Shown here piece after piece: positions 9,001 to 42,254 of a stretch of 48,717 bases of DNA (positions are counted from its first letter, which is position 1; every line of letters starts with the position of its first letter). The position numbers and the translations under genes were made by a program. Source of the stretch: a virus. Its lineage: Duplodnaviria; Caudoviricetes. Where the stretch lies: the IMG/VR virus record IMGVR_UViG_3300001730_000003, positions 1 through 48,717 of that record. One strand, 5' to 3'. Under the pieces are notes generated by a model that saw only the letters and a list, made by a program, of their open reading frames with translations, was not told the origin of the DNA and did no database searches.

Positions 9001-9417
9001 TTACACCCGCCCCAAAACCATCACCTGCCACACATCGCCCGCTCCTGGCCCAATGAGCGGTTCATCGGTCCATGACGGGTTCCATTCGATCTTGCCGCCC
9101 TTGCACACGACCACATGGCCCCCACCGCCCCGAGTGCCGCCGAACAGCAGATATACGGAGGTGGGGTTGAGTTGGGCCATGTGGTCCAGAATCAGTTCGA
9201 GTGGTTCACCCGGCAGGTGCATGATGAACGGCGCCTCACCGAACGGTGCGAGCCAGTCGCGCAACCGCTGCATCGCCACGGACGGTTCCGGGTTGTCGTG
9301 CATGAAGTGCGACACCTGCGTGTAGTCGAGTTCCATGACCGACGCGACACAAGCGCGCAGACAGTCGCCGTATGTGTGAGGTGGGTCATGTTTGACCCGA
9401 CAGTGTTCGTAGTTCAC
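9001..9417 (-). CDS. Putative papain-like/C39-like cysteine peptidase-fold protein
   Basis: GDCLRACVAS...GHVVV...IEWNP gives a candidate Cys/His/Asn arrangement. Confidence 0.45.
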   Translation of the reverse strand: MNYEHCRVKHDPPHTYGDCLRACVASVMELDYTQVSHFMHDNPEPSVAMQRLRDWLAPFGEAPFIMHLPGEPLELILDHMAQLNPTSVYLLFGGTRGGGGHVVVCKGGKIEWNPSWTDEPLIGPGAGDVWQVMVLGRV

Positions 9418-15575: not shown

Positions 15576-15733
15576 ACATCGCGGTCGGCCTGTTCGTATG
15601 CGCCGTCATCTGGTCCGCAGTGGACAATTGGATCACCCGGCGCGCAATTGACCATTTGCAGGCGCGCATGGACATCTGGTCGGTGCAGTGCGGCAAGGTG
15701 CTGGATGAGGTGCGTGAGAAAGGTAGTGAATAA
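15572..15733 (+). CDS. Small membrane-anchored protein
   Basis: ATGA overlap; MNIAVGLFVCAVIW. Confidence 0.5.
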   Translation: MNIAVGLFVCAVIWSAVDNWITRRAIDHLQARMDIWSVQCGKVLDEVREKGSE

Positions 15734-16289
15734 AAAACAGAAGCACTGTAACAAATCGATCGATGATTTCTATATCGATCAGAGGCGTGGTGATGGACAT
15801 TACCCGATTTGTAAATCATGTCACCGGGAGTACTCACGCGAAAGATACAAAAACAACGAGCATGTGAGAAAACAAAGTAGTGATAGATCAAAGCGTCTGA
15901 GGGAAACTAACGAGGGTCGAGATGCTATAGCACGCAGAGGCGATAAATACTATTCATCAATTCACGGTAGAGCAAAAACACTTTGGCGCGGTGCACATGC
16001 GAGGGATGCATCTGCAACGCTCACTTTGGAAAAAGTCACTGAAATGCTGCAGAGAGGTGTCTGTTCTGTCACGGGAATACCTTTCGATCTTTCGAGTGGG
16101 TACAGGCGCAGAACCGGAAGAAATATGAACCCATTAGCACCATCGCTCGACCAGATAGTTGCCGGTGCAGGTTACACCAATGAAAATACTCGAATTGTGA
16201 TCTGGCATTACAACTGGATGAAGGGTCAATTCACTGATTTCGAGACATATTTAATGGCTAAGGCCATAGTTGCGAGTTTTGAAAAATGA
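15726..16289 (+). CDS. HNH-like putative homing endonuclease, same family as 461-1102
   Basis: CKSC, CSVTGIPF, APSLDQI..G.GYTNEN.RIV...YNWMK; AT-rich. Confidence 0.75.
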   Translation: MNKKQKHCNKSIDDFYIDQRRGDGHYPICKSCHREYSRERYKNNEHVRKQSSDRSKRLRETNEGRDAIARRGDKYYSSIHGRAKTLWRGAHARDASATLTLEKVTEMLQRGVCSVTGIPFDLSSGYRRRTGRNMNPLAPSLDQIVAGAGYTNENTRIVIWHYNWMKGQFTDFETYLMAKAIVASFEK

Positions 16290-26106: not shown

Positions 26107-26490
26107 TCAAACCTTCCAGGCGGCGACGACCCGCACGAACCGACGATTGATTTCGACCGTACCACGCTCCAATCGGACGGCAAAGCCTTCTCCGGTGCAA
26201 AGCGCACCTACCTCGACCTCCCCGAGATCGATCACTGCCACGTCGCCACGGTCGGGTTTGCCCGTCAGCGGAAGCCCGACCAGATCGATCAAGCCTGCAT
26301 GCCCACCATGATCGTCCACGTGCCGCATCGCACCTGCTTCATCGTCATAGGTACCTCTGAACAGGCTCGCCACATCAAGGTGCCCTGCCGCCGCGAGATA
26401 GTCGCCTACGGACAGCAAGCAGTCCGATACGCCCCAGACGTGCGACCCGCGGCGCCATTCGGCCAGCGTGCGATCGACATGATCCATCAT
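26107..26490 (-). CDS. Tail assembly NlpC/P60-like protein
   Basis: WGVSDC, FRGTY, RGDVAV, AAWKV. Confidence 0.75.
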   Translation of the reverse strand: MMDHVDRTLAEWRRGSHVWGVSDCLLSVGDYLAAAGHLDVASLFRGTYDDEAGAMRHVDDHGGHAGLIDLVGLPLTGKPDRGDVAVIDLGEVEVGALCTGEGFAVRLERGTVEINRRFVRVVAAWKV

Positions 26491-31512: not shown

Positions 31513-32034
31513 TTACGGCGTGCCGTCGACCGGAGCGACCTTGATCTGGCGCTGCTGCAGACCGAGCGTGAAGATTTCCAGATCGAAATCCTCGTTGCGA
31601 CCGTTCGGTTCGCGCGGGCCGGCGACCAGGCCACGATTGTAACGAATGGTCGGGCTGCTGCCAACGAGCGCGTTCGGTGCGTCGTTACCCTCGGTCTTGA
31701 AGGCGTAATTGTAGTTGGTTGCGGCAGCGGTGCGCAGAGCGGTCTGACCGGTATCGCTCGGGCGGCGCTCGACTTCGATTTCGGGCGAGCCGGCGTCAGT
31801 CATACCCTTGGCCTTCTGGATCACGTCGGTGTCCCACGTGTCGTAGGTCAGGATGTTCGTATTGTCGCCCGTCTCGCCGAAGTTGCCGACACCCTTGATC
31901 TGGACCCAAGTGAGCCCTTCGAAGCCGCTCTGGTCGAGGTCGGTCGGTTGCGGGGTGGTGCAGATGTACAGCTTCCAGCCTGAATGGCTGTTGGCGAACC
32001 CGGCCAGCGCGGCCATTCCAAGCAGTGCTTTCAT
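31513..32034 (-). CDS. Major tail tube protein
   Basis: KLYICTT, LTWVQIKGVG.FGE.G, KAKG..DAG, D.GQ.AL; AGGAG RBS. Confidence 0.85.
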   Translation of the reverse strand: MKALLGMAALAGFANSHSGWKLYICTTPQPTDLDQSGFEGLTWVQIKGVGNFGETGDNTNILTYDTWDTDVIQKAKGMTDAGSPEIEVERRPSDTGQTALRTAAATNYNYAFKTEGNDAPNALVGSSPTIRYNRGLVAGPREPNGRNEDFDLEIFTLGLQQRQIKVAPVDGTP

Positions 32035-32038
32035 CGTG

Positions 32039-32455
32039 TTAACTCCTGGACGACAGATAGTAGATCGAACATGGGTAGAGTCGCTCGTCGCCTTCGCGCA
32101 ATACCCCTGTGAAATCGGGAATATCATAGACCTTGACATCGGACAAGATACGGTTCTTGTCGAAATACTCGACGATCGACGACAGCACACCGAGCGGGCT
32201 GTAAACCCCGGTCATCGTGTTCGGCCAATGCAGCACCAGTCGCAGGATGCCCTGATAGCGCTTCTCGTTGCCCCAGAAGTCACCGCGGCGATTGTTCGGC
32301 AACCAGACGATTTCGAGCCACTTCTGGTCGTTTGGCTTGGTGAACGCCACGTCCAGATACATGACCGGCAGTGATGGTGTCCCGCTCGCCGCAACAGCCG
32401 CAGTGACCGCCTTCTGCAAGGTGCTGATGATCGCAGAGTCGTCCATGAGTGGCAT
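32039..32455 (-). CDS. Tail terminator protein
   Basis: F.KP...KWL, YQGIL...L.WP; synteny. Confidence 0.7.
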   Translation of the reverse strand: MPLMDDSAIISTLQKAVTAAVAASGTPSLPVMYLDVAFTKPNDQKWLEIVWLPNNRRGDFWGNEKRYQGILRLVLHWPNTMTGVYSPLGVLSSIVEYFDKNRILSDVKVYDIPDFTGVLREGDERLYPCSIYYLSSRS

Positions 32456-32892
32456 CAGCGGTCTCCTGCGGCCCGACGCAGGCGCATCACGGCGTCGTCG
32501 ACGTACTTCTGCCAGTTTTGCACCGGGGCGTCCAGAAATCCATCGTAGGTGTTGCGGACTTCGGCATAATTGGCCGTCCACCCGTAGTAGAACACATCGC
32601 CCGGTTCGAGCGATGCGAGCACAGTGGTCACAGCATCACCGTCCCACGAGAACTGCCCGTTGACCGCATCGACCGGGCGCACGTTCGGTCCGCTGGGCAT
32701 CGATCCGAGCGCGGCACGACCGCTTGCAGACAGGAAACCGGTCTTGTAACGCATGCGCCCGCCGCGATCAGTCGTGGTCTGTGCATCGTTAGTCAGATTG
32801 TCGATGGCATCGCGAGCAACCATGAGCGCCCGTTCTTCGGCATCTGCGACCCAATTCTCGACAGTCGCGACGAATTGCTTGTTATCGGTCAT
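32455..32892 (-). CDS. HK97 gp10-like tail completion protein
   Basis: KTGFLSAS, GWTANYA, QNWQ.YV. Confidence 0.75.
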   Translation of the reverse strand: MTDNKQFVATVENWVADAEERALMVARDAIDNLTNDAQTTTDRGGRMRYKTGFLSASGRAALGSMPSGPNVRPVDAVNGQFSWDGDAVTTVLASLEPGDVFYYGWTANYAEVRNTYDGFLDAPVQNWQKYVDDAVMRLRRAAGDR

Positions 32893-33905
32893 CTCGCGCC
32901 CTCGAACCAATCCACTTTATAGCGCACCCGACACCGGCATCCAATCACTTCCTGACCGCCCGCCCCGAGCGATGTGTCGCCAGGGTGGAGCATATGTGCG
33001 CCAGTGACCGGCGACACGAACGCCTCATCGATCCCGACTGCCATTCCGTCCAGTTCCCGATGCGATGTGCGCGTGTGACCGTCATGCCGCGCAATCCATA
33101 TCTTCTGCACCTGCGAACGGGTGAGGCGACCTACTTCGACCGATTGCTTGATCGACAGCCACTCGGACTTGTTCAGCGCTGCAAGTGTCTCGGTGCGCCC
33201 GATCTGCTCGCCGCGGAACTTGAGTGCATTGTCGCGATACCGAGCGACCAGCTTGCCCACCGTGTCTGCCGGCAGCGGCTTCCCGCTCTCGATCGCCTTG
33301 AGCACAGTCTTGTCGAACCGCTTGTCGCGCAGACCCATGTCCAGATAGCCGGCATCGAGCGACAGGAGACGCTGGCGAGCGTTCGCGGCCCACTGCTGCT
33401 CACGTTGCCCCAGACCGATCGTGCCGCCCGTCCTGCGCCCTGTCTGCGGGTCAATGCGCCCGACTAGATCCAGAGCGGTATTGCGAGGATTGCGACCTTC
33501 GGCAAGACCTTGCTGGAGCGCCGCTTGCACAGCAGTGCGCGCATCACCTGTGATGTTCACGATGAGGCTGCTGCTCTCGTGAAACAACCATTCTTCGGCT
33601 CGCTTGTCGCGCATGTTGAACCTCGGCACCATCGTCACTCCATCACCTGCCGGGATGCGGACGGGCATCAACAGCAGCGCAGCCTGCCCACCTTGACCGA
33701 ACACGGACTGGATGGCTGCAATGAGCGGATTATACACGGGCTCCGTGATTCCGAGTGCACGAAATGCGCGATCGACATCATTCGCTTCAAGTGCAACGAT
33801 GACTTCCTTGAGCACCACATCATCAACAATCGTCTGGATTGCTTCACGAAACGCCTGCGCGATCTGCGGTGCAAGCTGAGCAAGCAGTTGCTCGAAACGG
33901 TCCAT
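32889..33905 (-). CDS. Mu gpF/SPP1 gp7-like head morphogenesis protein
   Basis: IGRTE, KIW...D..TR.SH..LDG, HPGD, IGCRC. Confidence 0.88.
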   Translation of the reverse strand: MDRFEQLLAQLAPQIAQAFREAIQTIVDDVVLKEVIVALEANDVDRAFRALGITEPVYNPLIAAIQSVFGQGGQAALLLMPVRIPAGDGVTMVPRFNMRDKRAEEWLFHESSSLIVNITGDARTAVQAALQQGLAEGRNPRNTALDLVGRIDPQTGRRTGGTIGLGQREQQWAANARQRLLSLDAGYLDMGLRDKRFDKTVLKAIESGKPLPADTVGKLVARYRDNALKFRGEQIGRTETLAALNKSEWLSIKQSVEVGRLTRSQVQKIWIARHDGHTRTSHRELDGMAVGIDEAFVSPVTGAHMLHPGDTSLGAGGQEVIGCRCRVRYKVDWFEGAR

Positions 33906-34270
33906 TATCGCCTCGCAAACGTCCGGTACGTGACAGGTGTACCCGCTGCCGGGATCGGGTCAAGTCGGACGATCTTGTGGCGTGATCCGTCGATGTCGAC
34001 GAACCCGCCGACTACAGGTACGACACTCAACGATCCCGGTATGGACAATTGCTTGTCGGTACTAACGATGTTGGTGCCATCAACATACTTGGTGCTGACG
34101 GTGCGCGCGAAACCATTGAACGGGTAACTCGTGACAGTGACAGTGCCCGGTGCGTCCGGTGTCGAACCTGCTGCGGCTTCTTCGACAACGTATGCGAGCG
34201 AACCTTGCTTCAGATCGGGGTCTGCTGCAAGTTCGTCGAAAATCGTCTGTGCGTCAGAATATACACTCAT
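33905..34270 (-). CDS. Head closure protein
   Basis: YVDGT.I...D, PIPAAG.PV; synteny. Confidence 0.7.
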   Translation of the reverse strand: MSVYSDAQTIFDELAADPDLKQGSLAYVVEEAAAGSTPDAPGTVTVTSYPFNGFARTVSTKYVDGTNIVSTDKQLSIPGSLSVVPVVGGFVDIDGSRHKIVRLDPIPAAGTPVTYRTFARR

Positions 34271-34275
34271 AAGTA

Positions 34276-34304
34276 TTGACCACCTTGCAAGCATGCGTTA
34301 GTTG
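34276..34304 (+). promoter_or_regulatory. Antisense-oriented sigma70-like promoter
   Basis: TTGACC-N17-TAGTTG. Confidence 0.5.
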
Positions 34305-34319
34305 TGCGTCACCTCAAAC

Positions 34320-34385
34320 ATGGAGCAGATCAAGGGCAACCCCGACCTCGCCGGCGCCGATACGCTCGTCTTCCGCACCAAGTAG
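34320..34385 (+). CDS. Putative 21-aa peptide MEQIKGNPDLAGADTLVFRTK
   Basis: Between promoter and terminator; all codons but one end in G/C. Confidence 0.45.
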   Translation: MEQIKGNPDLAGADTLVFRTK

Positions 34386-34407
34386 CCCCACGCCAGTCGG
34401 GTCGCAT

Positions 34408-34441
34408 GGGCCGCTGCATCACTCGGTGCAGCGGCCCTTTT
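34408..34441 (+). terminator. Intrinsic terminator
   Basis: GGGCCGCTGCA-tcactcgg-TGCAGCGGCCC followed by TTTT. Confidence 0.7.
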
Positions 34442-34932
34442 CATGCTCGATAAGACGCCCCGGACAGATTGGATCGACCGCCACTGTCGATCAGTACGGA
34501 CATGATCTCGGCGACGATCGGGAACTGCTTCTGCACGTCCGACGCCGACCGGTCGGCATAGCGCACGCTCAGCGCACCGTCGATCGATACGCTGGTGTAC
34601 TTGCTCGGAGTGTAGTCGACGCTCATTGCGCCGGGCGACTGCAGTTCGCGCAGTGCCAGTTCATAGGTCGCGTTGATCACCGCGGTCGGGATTGTGTCGT
34701 CTGCGATCGCGTACCCGTACACGTCCCACGCACCGATGCGCGGCCAGTCGCGTACTTGATCCTGACCACCCGTCTTGTAGCCCATGAAGTCTGCACGATA
34801 CTGTGCGTCGAGCCATTCGGACGCGACGACCAGGGCCGCATCTATCTCGCCGCTCGTATAATCCGACACGTCGCGACCACGTTCGGTGTGATAGGTCGAG
34901 AACCCACCGTTGGTGCCATACACGTCAGGCAT
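34441..34932 (-). CDS. Head-tail adaptor (DnaT-like family)
   Basis: Y...RG, AL..ASEWLD, Q...WPR, IP.AV..ATYELA. Confidence 0.8.
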   Translation of the reverse strand: MPDVYGTNGGFSTYHTERGRDVSDYTSGEIDAALVVASEWLDAQYRADFMGYKTGGQDQVRDWPRIGAWDVYGYAIADDTIPTAVINATYELALRELQSPGAMSVDYTPSKYTSVSIDGALSVRYADRSASDVQKQFPIVAEIMSVLIDSGGRSNLSGASYRA

Positions 34933-35263
34933 TGGTCAGCGCTTCGATCGCCTTGCCGGCTGCAGCCTGCGTCTTGTAGCCTTCCGGGTCGATACCTTCG
35001 ACATCCGTGATCGGCTTGCCGTGTTCGTCGACGACGATGAATTTGTTGTTGCCCTCTTTCATGACGAGCATGTTGGGCAGCGTGACATCGCTGACGGGCG
35101 AGACCGGGGCGACAGCGGCCGGCGTCGGGATCTTCGCGGTCCACTCGGACCACACGCGCTCCTTGGCAGGCTTCTCCTGGTCGAGATCGAACTGCTTCTG
35201 GTCCACGCGGACGGGGCCGTCGACACCTGCCTGCTTGCAAAGAACAACTCCACGTTCGGTCAT
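34925..35263 (-). CDS. Hypothetical virion-associated protein
   Basis: AGGAG RBS; directly after the capsid gene. Confidence 0.65.
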   Translation of the reverse strand: MTERGVVLCKQAGVDGPVRVDQKQFDLDQEKPAKERVWSEWTAKIPTPAAVAPVSPVSDVTLPNMLVMKEGNNKFIVVDEHGKPITDVEGIDPEGYKTQAAAGKAIEALTNA

Positions 35264-35359
35264 GCGTCATCTCCTTCCCCACGAACGTATCGAACAAATG
35301 ACCCCGGTGCCATGGGAAACACCGGGGCCACCGTGACGCACTCCTGTTGGAGTGATCTG

Positions 35360-36613
35360 TTAGCCGAGCAGCAGGGCCATATGCTCCGTCTTCACGGCCT
35401 TCCAGCCCCACGCCGCTGCGACTTCGTAGCGCACCTTGCGATAGAGCGGATAGACCGAGACCTCGAACATCATGCCCGAGCGCGAGTCGGTGATCATCAT
35501 ACGGTCCATCGCTGCGTCACCTTCCTGCGGCAGCGCCGGGGCGCGGGTCGCAAGGACGATGGCGTTCTGCGAGAAGCCGACACCGCCGACATCGTAGCTG
35601 TCACCAACCGTGATGGCAGTGGCCGATGCCGGAATGGCCTGCATCAGACCCGGAGCCGCGATGGTGATGGTGCCACCACCCGACACGTCCGCATCACCCG
35701 AAGTGACGACGTACTTGTGCGGATCGCCGGCAAAGGTGATCACGTCGTCCGCAAGGATCGTGCCGGTGCCGGCCGATGCAAGGGTGATCGTGGTCGAGCC
35801 GACCGCGTAACCTGCGTTGTTGGTCGTGGCACTTGCACCCGTACCCTTCGTGTGGCTCGACACCATCTGTGCCGATTCCTTGAAGGACATGTTGTGCAGA
35901 TCGACCAGTTCACCTTGGCGCAGCGTCATGATCGAACCGGCTTCGTTCGCCTTGGTAAGCTGCGTGTTGGTGCGCAGGTTGGCACCTACCGTGGTGTTGA
36001 TCACGACCGAGCGACCCGATGCCGGGGCACCGTTGTCATCGAGCACCTTGCGAAGCTGAGCGCTGTCACCGACACCCGAACCGAACGGGGTGGTACCTGC
36101 CGTGCCGGCTGCACGCGAGACCGCGGCGATTGCGGCAGCGGTGCCGTCACCTTCCATCTCGTTCGTCAGGGCGCGAAGGGCCTGTGCGAACATGTCGGAC
36201 TGGACGTTCATGTAGCCCGGACCATTGGTATTCAGCCCGCGCTGTTCCTCACCGACGAAACCGAACTCGGCGCCGCGCGACTTGGTGATGGTGAGCGAGC
36301 CGGTGCCAATGGTCTGGCCGGTCGGGTCGGGGATCACGTTGGACGGGGTGACGTTGAACAGGTTAGCAGCGGGCGCGATGTGATACACCGTGTCCTGACC
36401 GACTGCAGCACGTTCGGCGGTTGCGGAACGCGAGACAGACGGGATCATGCCGACCAGTTCGCGCGACACGACATCGAGACCTTCGTACAGGTCGGGAATG
36501 AGGCCGGTGAGCGTGTTGTCGTAGCCGATCTTGTAATCGGACAGGTGGCCGATCATGGGCGCAGCGCGCGAAGCGAGAATGGCAGTCATGCCACCCGAAA
36601 CGAGACGAGTCAT
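35360..36613 (-). CDS. Major capsid protein (P22 coat-like)
   Basis: NTLTGLIPDLY..LDVVSRELVG, FAQALRAL.NE.E, WGWKAVK.EH; GAGG RBS. Confidence 0.9.
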   Translation of the reverse strand: MTRLVSGGMTAILASRAAPMIGHLSDYKIGYDNTLTGLIPDLYEGLDVVSRELVGMIPSVSRSATAERAAVGQDTVYHIAPAANLFNVTPSNVIPDPTGQTIGTGSLTITKSRGAEFGFVGEEQRGLNTNGPGYMNVQSDMFAQALRALTNEMEGDGTAAAIAAVSRAAGTAGTTPFGSGVGDSAQLRKVLDDNGAPASGRSVVINTTVGANLRTNTQLTKANEAGSIMTLRQGELVDLHNMSFKESAQMVSSHTKGTGASATTNNAGYAVGSTTITLASAGTGTILADDVITFAGDPHKYVVTSGDADVSGGGTITIAAPGLMQAIPASATAITVGDSYDVGGVGFSQNAIVLATRAPALPQEGDAAMDRMMITDSRSGMMFEVSVYPLYRKVRYEVAAAWGWKAVKTEHMALLLG

Positions 36614-36648
36614 GTGAACCTCACGGTTGAATAGCGATTTCTGGAAGA

Positions 36649-36714
36649 TCGTCACGGTCATCCAACCGGTTCTTCGATCGAGCAGTCGTCACGGTCATCC
36701 AACCGGTTCTTCGA
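36649..36714 (-). repeat. Two 29-bp direct repeats in the capsid 5' leader
   Basis: tcgtcacggtcatccaaccggttcttcga at 36649 and 36686; the minus strand forms a CGGT-TGGATG-ACCG hairpin. Confidence 0.9.
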
Positions 36715-36723
36715 CTTGAGCGC

Positions 36724-36752
36724 AGAGTGACACAATGGTTCAAATGCGTCAA
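36724..36752 (-). promoter_or_regulatory. Putative capsid promoter
   Basis: Minus strand TTGACG-N17-CACTCT, directly after the hairpin at 36753-36780. Confidence 0.5.
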
Positions 36753-36780
36753 GCCCCGCATGATGTGAGTCATGCGGGGC
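36753..36780. terminator. Strong hairpin closing the ncRNA locus
   Basis: gccccgcatga-tgtgag-tcatgcggggc, 11 bp perfect. Confidence 0.6.
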
Positions 36781-37145
36781 TATCATCCGTGCCAACGGAA
36801 ACTCGTCCGACCGACACCGATCGACCGCTTATGTGGTTGGAGCCACTGCAAATCTCTCAGTGGTGGGGCAAGGTCGTCTCTCTGCTTTTATCCCACTTTG
36901 CTCATCGCCCCTTGCGGTTCCACCCGCTACTCACGACGCATCTCGAAACTCACGGGTCCACCGGGCACCACCCGGCCGATGTACGGGGAATTGAACCCCG
37001 GCGCACCTCGCGGCTTTGCGCGGACCCTCTGTATGCTTCGGATCAGCCGGATTCGAACCGACCCTTCCATCCTGTCTCTGGAATCGAACCAGAAGGTGAT
37101 CAACCCCGTCATCCAGACGCACCCGAAGCATACAGAGGGTGTGGA
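36780..37145 (-). ncRNA. Unclassified structured RNA with three T-arm motifs
   Basis: T-arms at 36984-37000, 37046-37062 and 37077-37093; 18-bp perfect stem 37024-37041/37123-37140. Boundaries approximate. Confidence 0.7.
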
Positions 37146-37159
37146 AACCCACTCAGTAT

Positions 37160-37510
37160 AGTGGCCCGTTCTGTTCCAAGGTGGGCCAGTCCCGTCAGTG
37201 CTTACGCAGCAATGCGTACATCCTGAATGTCGTTGTCATTGGCGACATTTATGGTTTCGGTCCTGTTGAAGTCGGGCCTCACTTGATCGCGCTCAATTTC
37301 AGTCGCTCGGATCGATCCTGGTTCACCCCCGTCAACTACTGTCTGCCCTGTCTTATCGATTTAGCGCTTGTGGCAGGGACTACGGTATGTGCCTTAGCCA
37401 GACAGTAGATGGTGGAGGTGGCGGGATTCGCACCCGCGTCTCCGATTGTCCTACGTTGATCGAATTACGATCATTACCCGGTTGCCCGGATTTCGCGGGG
37501 TGCGGCTCGG
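37160..37510 (-). ncRNA. ssrA: Two-piece (circularly permuted) tmRNA
   Basis: Acceptor piece ends GCGGGTGCGAATCCCGC-CACCTCC-ACCA (37437-37410). A stem-closed intervening segment follows. The coding piece starts GGGGGTG at 37330 (G3:U70 pair). Tag ANDNDIQDVRIAA-stop at 37243-37202. Outer ends approximate. Confidence 0.92.
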
Positions 37511-37511
37511 G

Positions 37512-37775
37512 TCACTACTCCCGTCCGCTATCCAAAGTAGTGATCCACATGGGTATGAGCCATGTGGCGATGGAACCCCTGGATATGCACCGAGTTTAAA
37601 CCACTGTACGCATCACATTGGCCTTCTGTGACACTTGCGGCTCGGTGCATACCGAGAGATTCAGTCGTTTTTGTAGTGTAGGGTGGCGTACTCGATCCTC
37701 CACCACCCCTGAAATCTTGCGCCCCACCACTACTAAGGACTACTCCGCATTCCAATGGATCGATCAGAATGCGAT
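37512..37775 (-). ncRNA. Structured non-coding segment upstream of the tmRNA
   Basis: Five consecutive stem-loops, e.g. TATGCACCGAG/CTCGGTGCATA, CCACATGG/CCATGTGG, TCACTACT/AGTAGTGA. Confidence 0.5.
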
Positions 37776-37783
37776 ATGCGAAT

Positions 37784-37837
37784 CACCTACCCTACTATGT
37801 GGTAAGTGTCAAGTGGGTCGGTACAGCACCGACCCAC
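37784..37837 (-). promoter_or_regulatory. Hairpin after the scaffold stop, followed by putative promoter of the RNA locus
   Basis: gtgggtcggt-acagc-accgacccac (37813-37837), then TTGACA-N17-TAGGTG on the minus strand. Confidence 0.55.
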
Positions 37838-37839
37838 CA

Positions 37840-38664
37840 TCAATCCACGATGGTCATTTCGCCCGCACGCTGCGCCTTGGCCGCAGCGGCCTGCTGGGCC
37901 GGGTTCATCCCGTCGAACTCGGCGCGAGTGATGCGACGGCCCGACTGGCTGCGATTGCCACCCTGGCCGCTGTTTCCGCTGCCCTCGTGACCCATCGGCT
38001 TGAGGATCGAGTCCTTGTACTGATAGCTGTCGACCATCATGGACAGGGCCTCGTCGAACGATGCGACCGACGCCATGTTCTTGCTCGAATAGAGCACATT
38101 GCCGTCACTGTCGTAGGGCACCAGTTTGCCATCCTCGACCTTGAACCGGTCGCCGAACTCCTTCTGGAACAGCGTCGGCGGGATCGCGACACGATCGCGG
38201 ACGAACTCGCTCTGCGAGAAAGCCGTGCTGCGGATCTGGTCGTCGAGCCGCGACTGGAGTTCCTGCGCACGCTTCTCGGCGTCGGTCAGCCTGCCCTGGA
38301 ACTGCTGCGTGATCGACTGCCGCACTTCCTCCAGTTTGCCGCTCTCGACCATCTTGTCCAGATCGACGCCGGCCAGCTTGTCCACCGCGGCGCGGGCGGC
38401 TTCGGGGTCAAGCCCTTCGAACTTCTTCAGGTTGGTCTCAGCCGCCTGCAGCCGTTCACGGAAGTTGCGGTTCTCACCGAGCATCTGAGGGATGGTGTTG
38501 CCGCGCACCACCAGTTCCTTGCCCTCACCGTCGACGAATACCGGGTCGCCGCTATCGTTGAGCACCAGCGCGCCGCTCTCATCCTTCTTCCAACCGGCCT
38601 TGTTCTCGAAACCGACCATCATGGTCGTGGTGAGCAGTGCCACCACACGGTTCATCTTCATCAT
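37840..38664 (-). CDS. Capsid scaffolding protein
   Basis: WKKDESG..V...G.PVFV..G.E, coiled coil, GSG..G tail; between portal and capsid. Confidence 0.85.
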   Translation of the reverse strand: MMKMNRVVALLTTTMMVGFENKAGWKKDESGALVLNDSGDPVFVDGEGKELVVRGNTIPQMLGENRNFRERLQAAETNLKKFEGLDPEAARAAVDKLAGVDLDKMVESGKLEEVRQSITQQFQGRLTDAEKRAQELQSRLDDQIRSTAFSQSEFVRDRVAIPPTLFQKEFGDRFKVEDGKLVPYDSDGNVLYSSKNMASVASFDEALSMMVDSYQYKDSILKPMGHEGSGNSGQGGNRSQSGRRITRAEFDGMNPAQQAAAAKAQRAGEMTIVD

Positions 38665-38669
38665 ATGCG

Positions 38670-40277
38670 TCACTCCATCGTTTGTGCGTCACTTTGCACG
38701 GTATCTGGCCCATCACCGGGTAATTCGTCAAGCAGTCGTCGTTCTTCGGTGTCACTGCTGAAATTACTGGACAGCACACCGCGGCGCTTCATTTCGTCCC
38801 ACAGTGTCTCCTGAGAGATGTCAGGCTGCTTGTCGGCACTGCGCTCGCGCATGCGCAGCAGCGCGTCCAGATCCTCGCCTTCGCTGTAATCGTCGAAGTT
38901 GATGTGCACGTACACTTCCGGGTCGTAATCCGTGATCCCAAGCCATGCAGCGGTGAGCACCAAAGCGTTCTCCAGCGCATCCTTGAGGATCACTGCCCAA
39001 CCCTTGACCGTGCTCTTGGCCTTGCCGGCTGCAACCATAGCAGTGATGACGGTGATGTTCCCCGACTGCGCTGTGAGAGGCTGCTTGCCCAACTCGCGCA
39101 ACTCGCGGATCATCGCCTCATTCTCGGACGCGAGGAACTTGAGGCTTTCTGCCGAGGGCTCCACATATGACCACGTGCCGACTCGACCGGTGGCACCATC
39201 GGGTTTGCTGTAGAGCACCCGGCTCGGGCCGACAGCCAGACGCTTCGGGTTCCCGCTCGCATCCTTCTCAGCCTGGATGCCGTTCGCGGCGAGCATAGGA
39301 AATGCGGTCAGCTTCTTGGCGAACTTCAGGTCACTCTCGCCCTGGTACAGTTCAACCTGCAGATCGAGCGCATCCTTGAGTTGCGGCGAGACGCGCCATG
39401 TGCGTCCCTCACGGCGCCCGGTCACGAACGGCACGACCGGAATGCGACCGATACTGACGCGACCGCTGTCGATCTTGAGGAAGTGCGTGCGATCATCACC
39501 CTCGCCGACCGGTTGCTCCTGCTTCTCGAACAGGTTCCACACCACCGACCCATCGTCATTGCGAATGAACTCGCGAATGTGGTCCGGTTTGCCCGGCTCG
39601 AACACCTTGAAGTATGTGATCACCTCGCGCGTGGCGATGACCTTGCTCTGCACGTCGATCACGTTGCGGGCGAGAATATGGGACCAGTACGGGCGCAGCC
39701 CCAGCTTGATCTCATCAGCCCGGTTGACCGGTCGCGGTGTGCCCGGTGCAGGCTTGTCGAAATCGACCAGAATCCAGTCGAGCGCGTTGTTGATCCCGTT
39801 GAAGAACGTCGCGCCGGCAAACACGGTGATGTTGTTGCCCGAGCCATCCACATCCTCGACAAACTGCTTGATCGTGTCGGGCGGATTGGACATTTCCTCG
39901 CTCTTGGTGAGCATGACCGGCTGTTCGAATGGTTTGCCCGAGAGACCTTCCACGATGTCCCGGTACACGTTCGTCATCTTGGTGCACTTGAGGCGGAACT
40001 GGTAGTCGCGATTGTCCTCGTCGACGAACTTGGGCAGGTATTCCTCACCCTTCGCGCGCATGCCGTCGATACCGTCGAGAACGTCGTCCACCTTGTCCCA
40101 GAACGGGAGCATATGCTTGCTGTCGGCCGATCGGCGCAGCATCGGGTCGGTCCACTCGGCTGCGCCACCACCGTGCGCCCGGCCCTCGCGGGTCTGCGAA
40201 ACGATCTCGGGCGTGATCGGTACACCGCTGGCAAAGCCGGTCAGAGCGGTGGAATTGAGCAATGCGCGCATCTGCAT
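38670..40277 (-). CDS. Portal protein (DUF4055-like)
   Basis: G...MR..GE.YLPK..E....Y..RL, IP.VPF, ISQETL..E..RRG. Confidence 0.9.
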   Translation of the reverse strand: MQMRALLNSTALTGFASGVPITPEIVSQTREGRAHGGGAAEWTDPMLRRSADSKHMLPFWDKVDDVLDGIDGMRAKGEEYLPKFVDEDNRDYQFRLKCTKMTNVYRDIVEGLSGKPFEQPVMLTKSEEMSNPPDTIKQFVEDVDGSGNNITVFAGATFFNGINNALDWILVDFDKPAPGTPRPVNRADEIKLGLRPYWSHILARNVIDVQSKVIATREVITYFKVFEPGKPDHIREFIRNDDGSVVWNLFEKQEQPVGEGDDRTHFLKIDSGRVSIGRIPVVPFVTGRREGRTWRVSPQLKDALDLQVELYQGESDLKFAKKLTAFPMLAANGIQAEKDASGNPKRLAVGPSRVLYSKPDGATGRVGTWSYVEPSAESLKFLASENEAMIRELRELGKQPLTAQSGNITVITAMVAAGKAKSTVKGWAVILKDALENALVLTAAWLGITDYDPEVYVHINFDDYSEGEDLDALLRMRERSADKQPDISQETLWDEMKRRGVLSSNFSSDTEERRLLDELPGDGPDTVQSDAQTME

Positions 40278-40524: not shown

Positions 40525-42254
40525 CCTCCATACGACCCCACTTCCGCACTCGACCCACCTTCCGGCGCCGGGAAATATGCCATTACCGCAGCATCGCCCA
40601 TGTTCGGGCTCTTGGTCCCTTTCGGGGTCTTGTCCACAACCATCTTCAACGATGCAGCGCTTTGGCTCTTGGTGGGCTGCGACAACTCCTGCTTCAATTT
40701 CTCAAGTGCACCATATCCCATGGTGCTGTCGATACTCACCAGTTCGTCGATGTCATATTCGATCACGTCGCCCGCACGGTGCGCCTGTACAGCCTTCCAC
40801 GTCTTGTAGAACCTAGTACGCATGGACCACCATGCCTGTGCTTTCATGTTGTGGAAGAAGTCGCGGTTGTACGGTGACTTGTCATCGTCCGGTACAAGGT
40901 GGGCGAACGGTTCGACCACTTTCGCCCCTGCATGCCACGGGATCATGCGGTAGTCGGACTCATGGATTTCTCCAGCCGCGACCAGACGATTGTACTCGCT
41001 GCGGACTGCACTGCCTACACCGATGCAGTCGTATTGAATATCGAGATCACGTCGCCCGATCTCGCGCAAGTGACCCAACATGTGCCGTGTCGTCACGCCT
41101 GGGTCACGTTCGCCCCACTCGGCTGCACTGCGCAAGATGACACCCTGCCGCAATACGAGTGCGTTCTTGTCCAGACCTTCGTCGGCCACGTCGAGCCCCG
41201 CCATCCAGTTACCCGGATAGGCGTGCTTCATCACCGGGAGCAACAGGTGCGCGTCGACAGATGCTTCGATCCACTCGCGGCTGATGATGACTCCCTCAAC
41301 TGCGGCGCTGTGATTGCGTTCGACTTCCTGCGCGAAGATGTGCAGCATGCCTTGCGACTCGTACTGCGCGCGGCGCCTGTCGAACCACTCCTGCGTCTTT
41401 TCCGGGTGGTCGCGCCAGTCGAAGATGAACACCCGCGTCTTGCCCGGCTCGATCGTCTTGCATGGTTCCCAGATCACGCCGGTCTCGCGCTTGCGGTGAA
41501 ACGGGTTGCCGGTGCCGTTCACGGACGAGATATCGACGCGTACACGGGTATTGTCGCCCAAGGACGCCTCGATCGTTTCAGGTCGCTCAATGTGGGCCGC
41601 TTCGTCCACAGCGTACCACGTCTTGCGCCCGCCTCGCCCGATACCGTCACCCGCCTCGCCTGTTGCCGAGGCATCGTTGTCGTTATTGATAAACTTGAGC
41701 TGCCCGGACGTGACATCCTTCGGTTTCCAGATGTCGGGCAGTCGGTCGATCATGCGGCGCAATTTCTCGAATATCGAGTCCATGTCGCCCAGCTTGTCGA
41801 CGAGATCCTGCTTGCGGCTACCCCAGCCGACCGCGACACCCTCACGGAACAAGATATTGTGCGCAGTGTACGCGATGGTGAGCCATGACACGCCTGCATC
41901 GCGGCATTTCTCGACCAGACCACCTTCCTGGTCGCGCTGCAGATCCTCAAGGAACTGGATGTACTCGGCCTGGCGCTCAAACAGTATGAACGGCATCCAT
42001 TTCAACCGTGCCTTGCGCGGGTCGTATGTGTCGCACCAGTGCGTGATCCACTCTGCGGGTCGAGTGCTGTAATACGCGCGGGCGCTGGCGAGGGCCGCAG
42101 GATCGGACCTGAGACGGGTCAGCATGTCCATGCGCCACAAGAGCGCGCCGCGGTAGTCAGGGGGCCACTGCTCGCGCCCACACGGCCTCGGGCGCCATAG
42201 TGCGGTGCTTGGCGGTTCGGGCGGCGGAGGCGGGTCGAACAGGTCGGCTTGCAT
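40521..42254 (-). CDS. terL: Terminase large subunit
   Basis: EKCRDAGVSW, GRGGR, VDEAA, GLDVADEG.D, SPN.GDA. Confidence 0.93.
   Translation of the reverse strand: MQADLFDPPPPPEPPSTALWRPRPCGREQWPPDYRGALLWRMDMLTRLRSDPAALASARAYYSTRPAEWITHWCDTYDPRKARLKWMPFILFERQAEYIQFLEDLQRDQEGGLVEKCRDAGVSWLTIAYTAHNILFREGVAVGWGSRKQDLVDKLGDMDSIFEKLRRMIDRLPDIWKPKDVTSGQLKFINNDNDASATGEAGDGIGRGGRKTWYAVDEAAHIERPETIEASLGDNTRVRVDISSVNGTGNPFHRKRETGVIWEPCKTIEPGKTRVFIFDWRDHPEKTQEWFDRRRAQYESQGMLHIFAQEVERNHSAAVEGVIISREWIEASVDAHLLLPVMKHAYPGNWMAGLDVADEGLDKNALVLRQGVILRSAAEWGERDPGVTTRHMLGHLREIGRRDLDIQYDCIGVGSAVRSEYNRLVAAGEIHESDYRMIPWHAGAKVVEPFAHLVPDDDKSPYNRDFFHNMKAQAWWSMRTRFYKTWKAVQAHRAGDVIEYDIDELVSIDSTMGYGALEKLKQELSQPTKSQSAASLKMVVDKTPKGTKSPNMGDAAVMAYFPAPEGGSSAEVGSYGG

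Follow-up and report, generated by a model that had tools for sequence, protein, structure and literature searches.

The window analysed here is the whole of IMG/VR virus record IMGVR_UViG_3300001730_000003 (48,717 bases, estimated to be 89% complete), a tailed phage with a siphovirus head and tail module on its minus strand (terminase, portal, scaffold, capsid, connectors and tail tube). Four proteins from this module begin with similar short leaders, and the question that the locus raises is what these leaders are and what, if anything, removes them. There is a precedent in the Staphylococcus phage 80alpha: according to PMC5744158, its capsid and scaffold proteins share a leader with ribosomal protein L27, and this leader is cut by the protease Prp at F↓A (the arrow marks the cut). 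On sequence evidence and a predicted structure, we consider it likely that the phage's own 138-amino-acid (aa) protein, encoded at 9001..9417 on the minus strand, cuts the leaders off portal, scaffold, capsid and tube.

A sequence-only reading of this DNA had placed the four starts at 40277, 38664, 36613 and 32034, all on the minus strand, and the N-termini read as it gave them. The portal leader (40233..40277, residues 1-15, ending in TGF) heads a 535-aa protein with DUF4055 (38670..40277), which matches phrog_145 (E 4e-83) from residue 48. The scaffold leader (38608..38664, residues 1-19, ending in VGF) heads a 274-aa protein with DUF6651 (37840..38664) that matches phrog_784 and phrog_206, and the tail tube leader (31996..32034, residues 1-13, ending in AGF) heads the 173-aa major tail protein (31513..32034), which matches phrog_158 from residue 15. 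The capsid leader (36521..36613) departs from the fixed spacing of these three; it is longer, at 31 residues, and ends in IGY before DNTLTGLIP. Its gene (35360..36613) encodes the 417-aa major capsid protein, with P22-coat-like annotations in GenBank relatives and a match to phrog_283 (E 6e-80). That match begins at residue 32, which is profile position 2, in agreement with the claim that the capsid core starts right after GY. Each of the four starts also has the ribosome-binding site ascribed to it, a Shine-Dalgarno-like GAGG, GGAG or AGGAG lying 5-8 nt upstream.

The portal, scaffold and tube had been described as sharing ALLx4[LM]xGF with fixed spacing. A search with [AV]LL.{4}[LM].G[FY] across six frames of the whole window gave just three matches, which are the N-termini of these three proteins. 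The further claim that they use different codons held only in part, as Ala is GCA in all three and the scaffold and tube share GCA CTG CT. With 66 hand-picked open reading frames, the exact pattern arose in 3 of 2000 shuffles, once each. When we allowed for the motif having been chosen after the fact, by counting any 5-residue gapped motif common to three N-termini, the same level came up in 3 of 40 shuffles, and the window by itself is therefore no more than suggestive. It is conservation in relatives, and not the window motif alone, that establishes the leader as a feature.

Initiation downstream of the leaders, which had been named as a case against them, was rejected for scaffold, capsid and tube by the positions of the codons. 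The first in-frame ATG, GTG or TTG past the junction is at residue 34 in the scaffold, 49 in the capsid and 71 in the tube, all inside the conserved cores, and an intact copy of each protein must therefore be made with at least part of its leader. In the portal, Met46 precedes the core and is a possible alternative start that would bypass the leader. In a structure model of the tube the leader forms a helix, predicted with low confidence, that lies outside the beta core.

The leader is conserved in related phages. All four proteins carry it in the Rhizobium phages RHph_X2_24 and P106B (genus Rigallicvirus), which are the nearest cultured relatives by capsid (64% and 60%, respectively). For the tube we surveyed the best 120 of 589 homologues. 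In all 118 that could be anchored, [AG] and then [FYH] stand at a fixed distance from the core, and the two unanchored ones also have leaders. The aromatic is followed by Phe in 71 of the 118, by Ala in 35, Val in 6, Leu in 5 and Ser in 1. The scaffold homologues fall into leader-bearing and leaderless groups, and in most scaffolds the residue after the aromatic is Asp, Glu or Asn. The overall make-up is a basic start, a middle rich in Ala and Leu, often a Pro, and then A-[FYH]-x. As for the motif as first written, it is [AG][FYH] that is near-invariant, and the "ALL...L" portion differs between relatives in sequence and spacing.

We then read the N-termini by eye in a leader group of 18 whole or nearly whole genomes, the window included. 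An extension ending in an aromatic is present on the scaffold in 18/18 genomes and an extension is present on the capsid in 18/18 (one of them divergent), with a few variant junctions among scaffold and capsid (PY, VF). The tube has a leader in 15/18 plus one doubtful case, and the portal has a clear leader in 12/18 with three doubtful; because a capsid or tube leader was the criterion for placing a genome in the group, there is some circularity in the counts for those two proteins. The leaderless relatives begin the same proteins with M-ANTL, M-ANTN or M-x-WK. The leader thus occupies the position of their start Met, and alignment with homologues in this way confirmed the extensions. The fragment L009 has a scaffold that keeps its leader and a capsid and portal that are without it, which recalls 80alpha, where it is the scaffold that has the essential N-terminus; record G077 shows the reverse pattern, with a leader on the capsid and none on the scaffold.

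Relatives put the leader on other proteins too. It heads a Gp2.5-like single-stranded DNA-binding protein in G037 (L247-L249) and G039 (L253-L255), an unannotated family of 136-177 residues in P106B (L039) and several other relatives, and a small post-capsid protein in G038 and G039; the window's own single-stranded DNA-binding protein has no leader. The label of a virion-protein system was thus too narrow, as the single-stranded DNA-binding protein and the small unannotated protein are not known virion proteins. A leader scoring matrix and a regular expression found extra tagged proteins, but the two also missed some true leaders and the expression gave false matches, so we treated their results as leads only.

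The gene at 9001-9417 (phrog_5845) sits in the replication module, between a 255-aa gene and the helicase, and lies outside the interval of the sequence-only reading, which had left the protease as host or phage and listed this product as one candidate. The counterpart gene in P106B is P106B_57. The structure model of the window's protein has a predicted local distance difference test score (pLDDT) of 96. The best structural match is the C39 domain of ComA (VIA Z 9.3, root-mean-square deviation 3.0, 114 residues aligned), followed by PeiR (Z 8.9), PCAT1 (8.9) and LahT (7.7), and most of the 50 structural matches listed are papain-fold proteins. The neighbours also include entries that are not described as proteases (CtaG, AziU3/U2, CcbD and a lyase). 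Cys19, His101 and Asn/Asp113 are kept in 101/101 homologues, and we assigned them as the predicted catalytic set by their conservation and position. An Atlas lead with a score of 0.89 runs from this protein to a cluster in which 19% carry PF03412; among the 101 members themselves, none matched PF03412 at E<=0.1.

We also looked for other enzymes and for direct views of the products. Prp (PF04327), S78 and S49 proteases were each absent from the window and four relatives (0/5 records each, with the window estimated at 89% complete), which bears out the claim that the head module has no prohead protease of the S78 or S49 type. Other prohead protease families were covered through a Pfam/PHROG scan of 38 open reading frames, where the single "head maturation protease" match fell on the Mu-F domain of 32889-33905. 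The PF04327 search matched 3 of 14 control genomes, and Caulobacter was not among the three. A DUF6950 protein (26107-26490) was considered as the enzyme and rejected, since it is present in 6/17 leader genomes and 1/11 others and so does not track the leader. NCBIfam gave no family for any of eight proteins. PDB searches with profiles of the peptidase, tube and capsid gave nothing useful, so no solved virion shows mature N-termini. A complex prediction for the peptidase with tube residues 1-32 scored 0.01 and was uninformative either way.

The peptidase gene tracks the leader. We ran the peptidase profile on sets of 44 and 37 records and kept the 40 that were at least 90% complete or were GenBank genomes. 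The gene was present in 19 of 20 leader-bearing records and in 1 of 20 leaderless ones, with some of the leaderless assignments resting on the capsid alone. The sole leader-bearing miss (G015) is a contig that starts inside the helicase, so that the slot for the gene is off the contig. When all frames of the window were compared with 28 fetched genomes, the peptidase gene was the only real window gene with a pattern of 15/17 leader genomes against 0/11 others. Six leaderless close kin keep the terminase, polymerase, helicase, exonuclease and both flanking genes, with no peptidase between the flanks, and in two of them the flanking genes nearly touch at the empty slot. Records found through the helicase alone added three scorable cases, and all of them fit (G084 has the gene and the leader; G081 and G083 have neither). 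Two records found through the peptidase, G074 and G077, have leaders on their capsids.

In the helicase tree (45 of 81 rows used) the lineages without the gene nest inside the gene-bearing clade, and three changes of gene state are needed. The terminase and capsid trees need two changes of leader state. These sequence trees point to a history of about one gain and two nested losses. Taken together, the fold, the catalytic residues, the co-occurrence and the synteny point to the 9001-9417 product among the proteases that had been left as candidates. The sequence comparisons demonstrate that the leader is encoded and conserved, that translation of scaffold, capsid and tube cannot avoid it, and that the peptidase gene tracks it; the papain fold and the Cys19-His101-Asn113 triad are predicted from the model.

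The proposal that follows from this is that the enzyme would be made with the replication genes and would already be in the cytoplasm when the late genes are expressed. It would then cut its substrates while they are soluble precursors or in early assemblies, and would not be packaged like a prohead protease; acting there would account for tags on head proteins, tail proteins and, in relatives, proteins outside the virion. The cut would fall just after the aromatic (GF↓A, GF↓E, GY↓D) and restore the N-terminus that leaderless relatives obtain by removal of Met. This position is the most likely one, judging by the alignment to leaderless forms and by analogy with the F↓A site of Prp. Papain-type enzymes favour an aromatic at P2, and a cut after a small residue would resemble the double-glycine (GG/GA) processing of C39 enzymes, so a cut one residue later or one residue earlier is possible as well. 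The leader's job would be transient, in that it may keep self-polymerising proteins soluble or bound to a chaperone until it is clipped; this is the weakest step of the proposal. The idea of the sequence-only reading, a shared and removable leader comparable to the Prp/L27 tag, agrees with all of the data (the leader is conserved, replaces the start Met, and cannot be avoided in scaffold, capsid and tube), with the cleavage as its conjectural part.

Several points weigh against cleavage by the 138-aa protein. We infer the cleavage, the mature N-termini and the enzyme activity from sequence and a predicted model. The structural match is modest, in that a Foldseek search with the peptidase model found nothing at E<=0.001 and only weak matches of the same kind, and none of the 101 family members matched a Pfam peptidase family. 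Single leaders are dispensable, as the tube is without one in G001 and G011, the portal in G004, G013 and G015, and the scaffold in G077. The 19/20 and 1/20 counts are not 40 independent points, because the leaderless kin are interrelated and there are about two independent losses; the terminase tree alone is compatible with a single loss. The peptidase gene lies at least 22 kb from its proposed substrates. The peptidase family extends far beyond the leader group (4434 clusters at 50% identity and E<=0.001), and it has members in Me-ZS1, Mallos, Lumi, G075 and G076; the proteins we inspected in those phages have no such leader. In 80alpha, mutants with uncleavable capsid and scaffold are viable, and the scaffold needs its N-terminus, for which a chaperone or hold role has been proposed, and not the cleavage of it (PMC5744158), so a tag of this sort may matter for something other than its removal.

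Homologues in phages unrelated to the leader group are at L110:6690-7361 in Mallos, where the gene directly precedes the portal, at L112:13966-14397 in Lumi, and at 40966-41358 in the Me-ZS1 record. Position 6 is Cys in 100 of the 101 leader-group members, whereas Gln stands there in the distant homologues of Mallos, Lumi and L290. This Gln may form the oxyanion hole, and judging by sequence those three homologues may belong to a separate subfamily. A tree of the peptidase had little resolution and did not settle the question.

A host protease might remove the leader instead, as a counterpart of Prp in Alphaproteobacteria (for example TldD/E or an M16 processing peptidase), with the 138-aa gene having some other target and travelling with the clade. 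For the same kind of tag 80alpha does use a host enzyme (PMC5744158), and both the homologues in leaderless phages and the small number of independent co-losses, about two, fit this. We nevertheless consider it unlikely, since both nested losses of the leader coincide with loss of the peptidase from an otherwise intact gene block, no other window gene shows the peptidase's pattern, and Prp was found neither in the five phage records nor in the Caulobacter control genome. A leader that is never cut, and that acts as a retained or transient binding tag for a chaperone, the Sec machinery or the membrane to place or time assembly, is quite unlikely in our judgement. The leader does resemble a short signal peptide and was modelled as a helix, and the 80alpha scaffold's need for an N-terminus without its cleavage (PMC5744158) is what such a tag would give. 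However, conservation centres on a sharply defined pair of residues at the ancestral N-terminus, as it would at a cut site, and the leader co-occurs with a predicted protease. The tag role and cleavage are also compatible with each other.

The 138-aa protein could also bind the leader as a chaperone or carry out other chemistry, such as the acyl transfer or ligation known from some papain-fold proteins. The non-protease entries among its structural neighbours would fit this, as would Cys6 in place of the Gln of the distant homologues. The best-scoring folds, though, belong to enzymes that remove leaders or hydrolyse amides, and the Cys-His-Asp/Asn set is invariant, which leaves this reading very improbable. 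Scarcely credible to us is the idea that the leaders are true Sec signal peptides cut by signal peptidase I. That enzyme requires small residues at -1 and -3 of the cut (the small-x-small rule). The G-F-A junction of the window's tube and portal fits the rule, and some relatives have long, hydrophobic capsid leaders (L001, L010). Across homologues the rule does not hold, as only 36/118 tubes have Ala or Ser after the aromatic (against 71 with Phe and 11 with Val or Leu) and most scaffolds have an acidic residue or Asn there, so the signal-peptide idea is disfavoured as a general mechanism. Capsid, scaffold and single-stranded DNA-binding proteins must also do their work in the cytoplasm.

Processing by the 138-aa protein has counterparts among known systems. 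HK97 and lambda encode serine prohead proteases (S78 and the S49 enzyme gpC, respectively) in their head modules and package them in the prohead. The removal of N-terminal propeptides from head proteins by a phage-encoded enzyme, proposed here, is alike; the absence of S78 and S49 and a tag that reaches the tail tube and replication proteins are not. By analogy, the leader system is one that works like Prp processing in 80alpha, where a short shared leader ending in an aromatic also heads unrelated virion proteins of a phage without a prohead protease. Prp (MEROPS C108) is described as an enzyme of the host, present in Firmicutes and a small number of further phyla, with the motif MLxx(D/N)LQ(F/L)F↓A (PMC9405229), and a Prp-type motif is also present on the major tail protein of phi13 (PMC5744158). 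Unlike these, the leader here has a hydrophobic run and [AG][FYH] with no LQ, the (D/N)LQ(F/L)F↓A pattern was not found, no Prp was found in the five phage records, and the enzyme proposed is the phage's own, with a papain fold predicted for it. Phage Cp-1 has a phage-encoded cysteine protease (clan CR, the clan of Prp) that removes an N-terminal capsid extension of about 40 residues (PMC9405229). This is alike in that a phage-encoded cysteine protease is proposed to remove an extension of the capsid protein; it differs in that the passage on Cp-1 names one substrate, whereas here the predicted fold is C39-like and the tag is portable between head, tail and non-virion proteins.

The C39 peptidases are the nearest by predicted fold (ComA PEP 5xe8, PCAT1 8vp3 and LahT 6mpz; PF03412), with Cys at a helix start and His and Asp/Asn on strands, and they remove helical N-terminal leaders. 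The protein here differs in being a stand-alone 138-aa open reading frame without an ABC transporter or a Pfam match, at 11-13% identity, and its proposed substrates are large cytoplasmic phage proteins whose leaders end in [AG][FYH] and not GG/GA. We found no description of this leader or enzyme in the literature within reach of our search, which did not extend to most subscription papers, the original P106B study among them.

The purpose of the 80alpha capsid and scaffold leader is stated as unclear in PMC5744158. Prp is essential to its host, which makes the function of an 80alpha-type leader hard to study. In this system the phage encodes both the tag and what is likely its enzyme, natural relatives are without both, and P106B and RHph_X2_24 are cultured carriers, so the function of a leader becomes directly testable. 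If cleavage by the 138-aa protein is true, it would give a function to the unannotated family phrog_5845 and provide a small protease-tag pair orthogonal to common hosts. A broader reading, which we regard as evenly balanced between right and wrong, is that this is a self-contained phage propeptide system. A portable leader, applicable to almost any phage protein (head, tail, single-stranded DNA-binding or accessory), would be paired with a private C39-like peptidase, giving control of folding, assembly or visibility to host sensors independently of the host; its history would be a single gain and at least two losses, each of the whole unit, in a large group of alphaproteobacterial phages.

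The hosts of the cultured leader-group members are rhizobia. A scan of bacterial genomes for prophages gave three loci in metagenome-assembled genomes, without a usable host. Between the scaffold and capsid genes, at 37111-37502 on the minus strand, the window carries a permuted (two-piece) transfer-messenger RNA (tmRNA) gene of alphaproteobacterial type, with an intact tag frame ending in AA, which fits a rhizobium-like host. We did not find a tmRNA in 59 loci from about 20 relatives, so the one in the window looks recently acquired. Directly after it a tRNA-Ser(CGA) is predicted at 37038-37121 on the minus strand, which Rfam did not call at its gathering threshold and which is bracketed by a perfect 18-nt inverted repeat (37024-37041 and 37123-37140). 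Two identical 29-nt repeats, 37 nt apart (36649-36714), lie a short way upstream of the capsid start and may be a regulatory site. There are two endonuclease VII-like genes (phrog_1035), at 461-1414 on the minus strand and 15648-16289 on the plus strand, which adjoin a primase-like fragment and the polymerase and are probably homing endonucleases. The end of the contig (48617-48717) consists of a 39-nt tandem repeat in about 2.6 copies, which may explain the break in the assembly.

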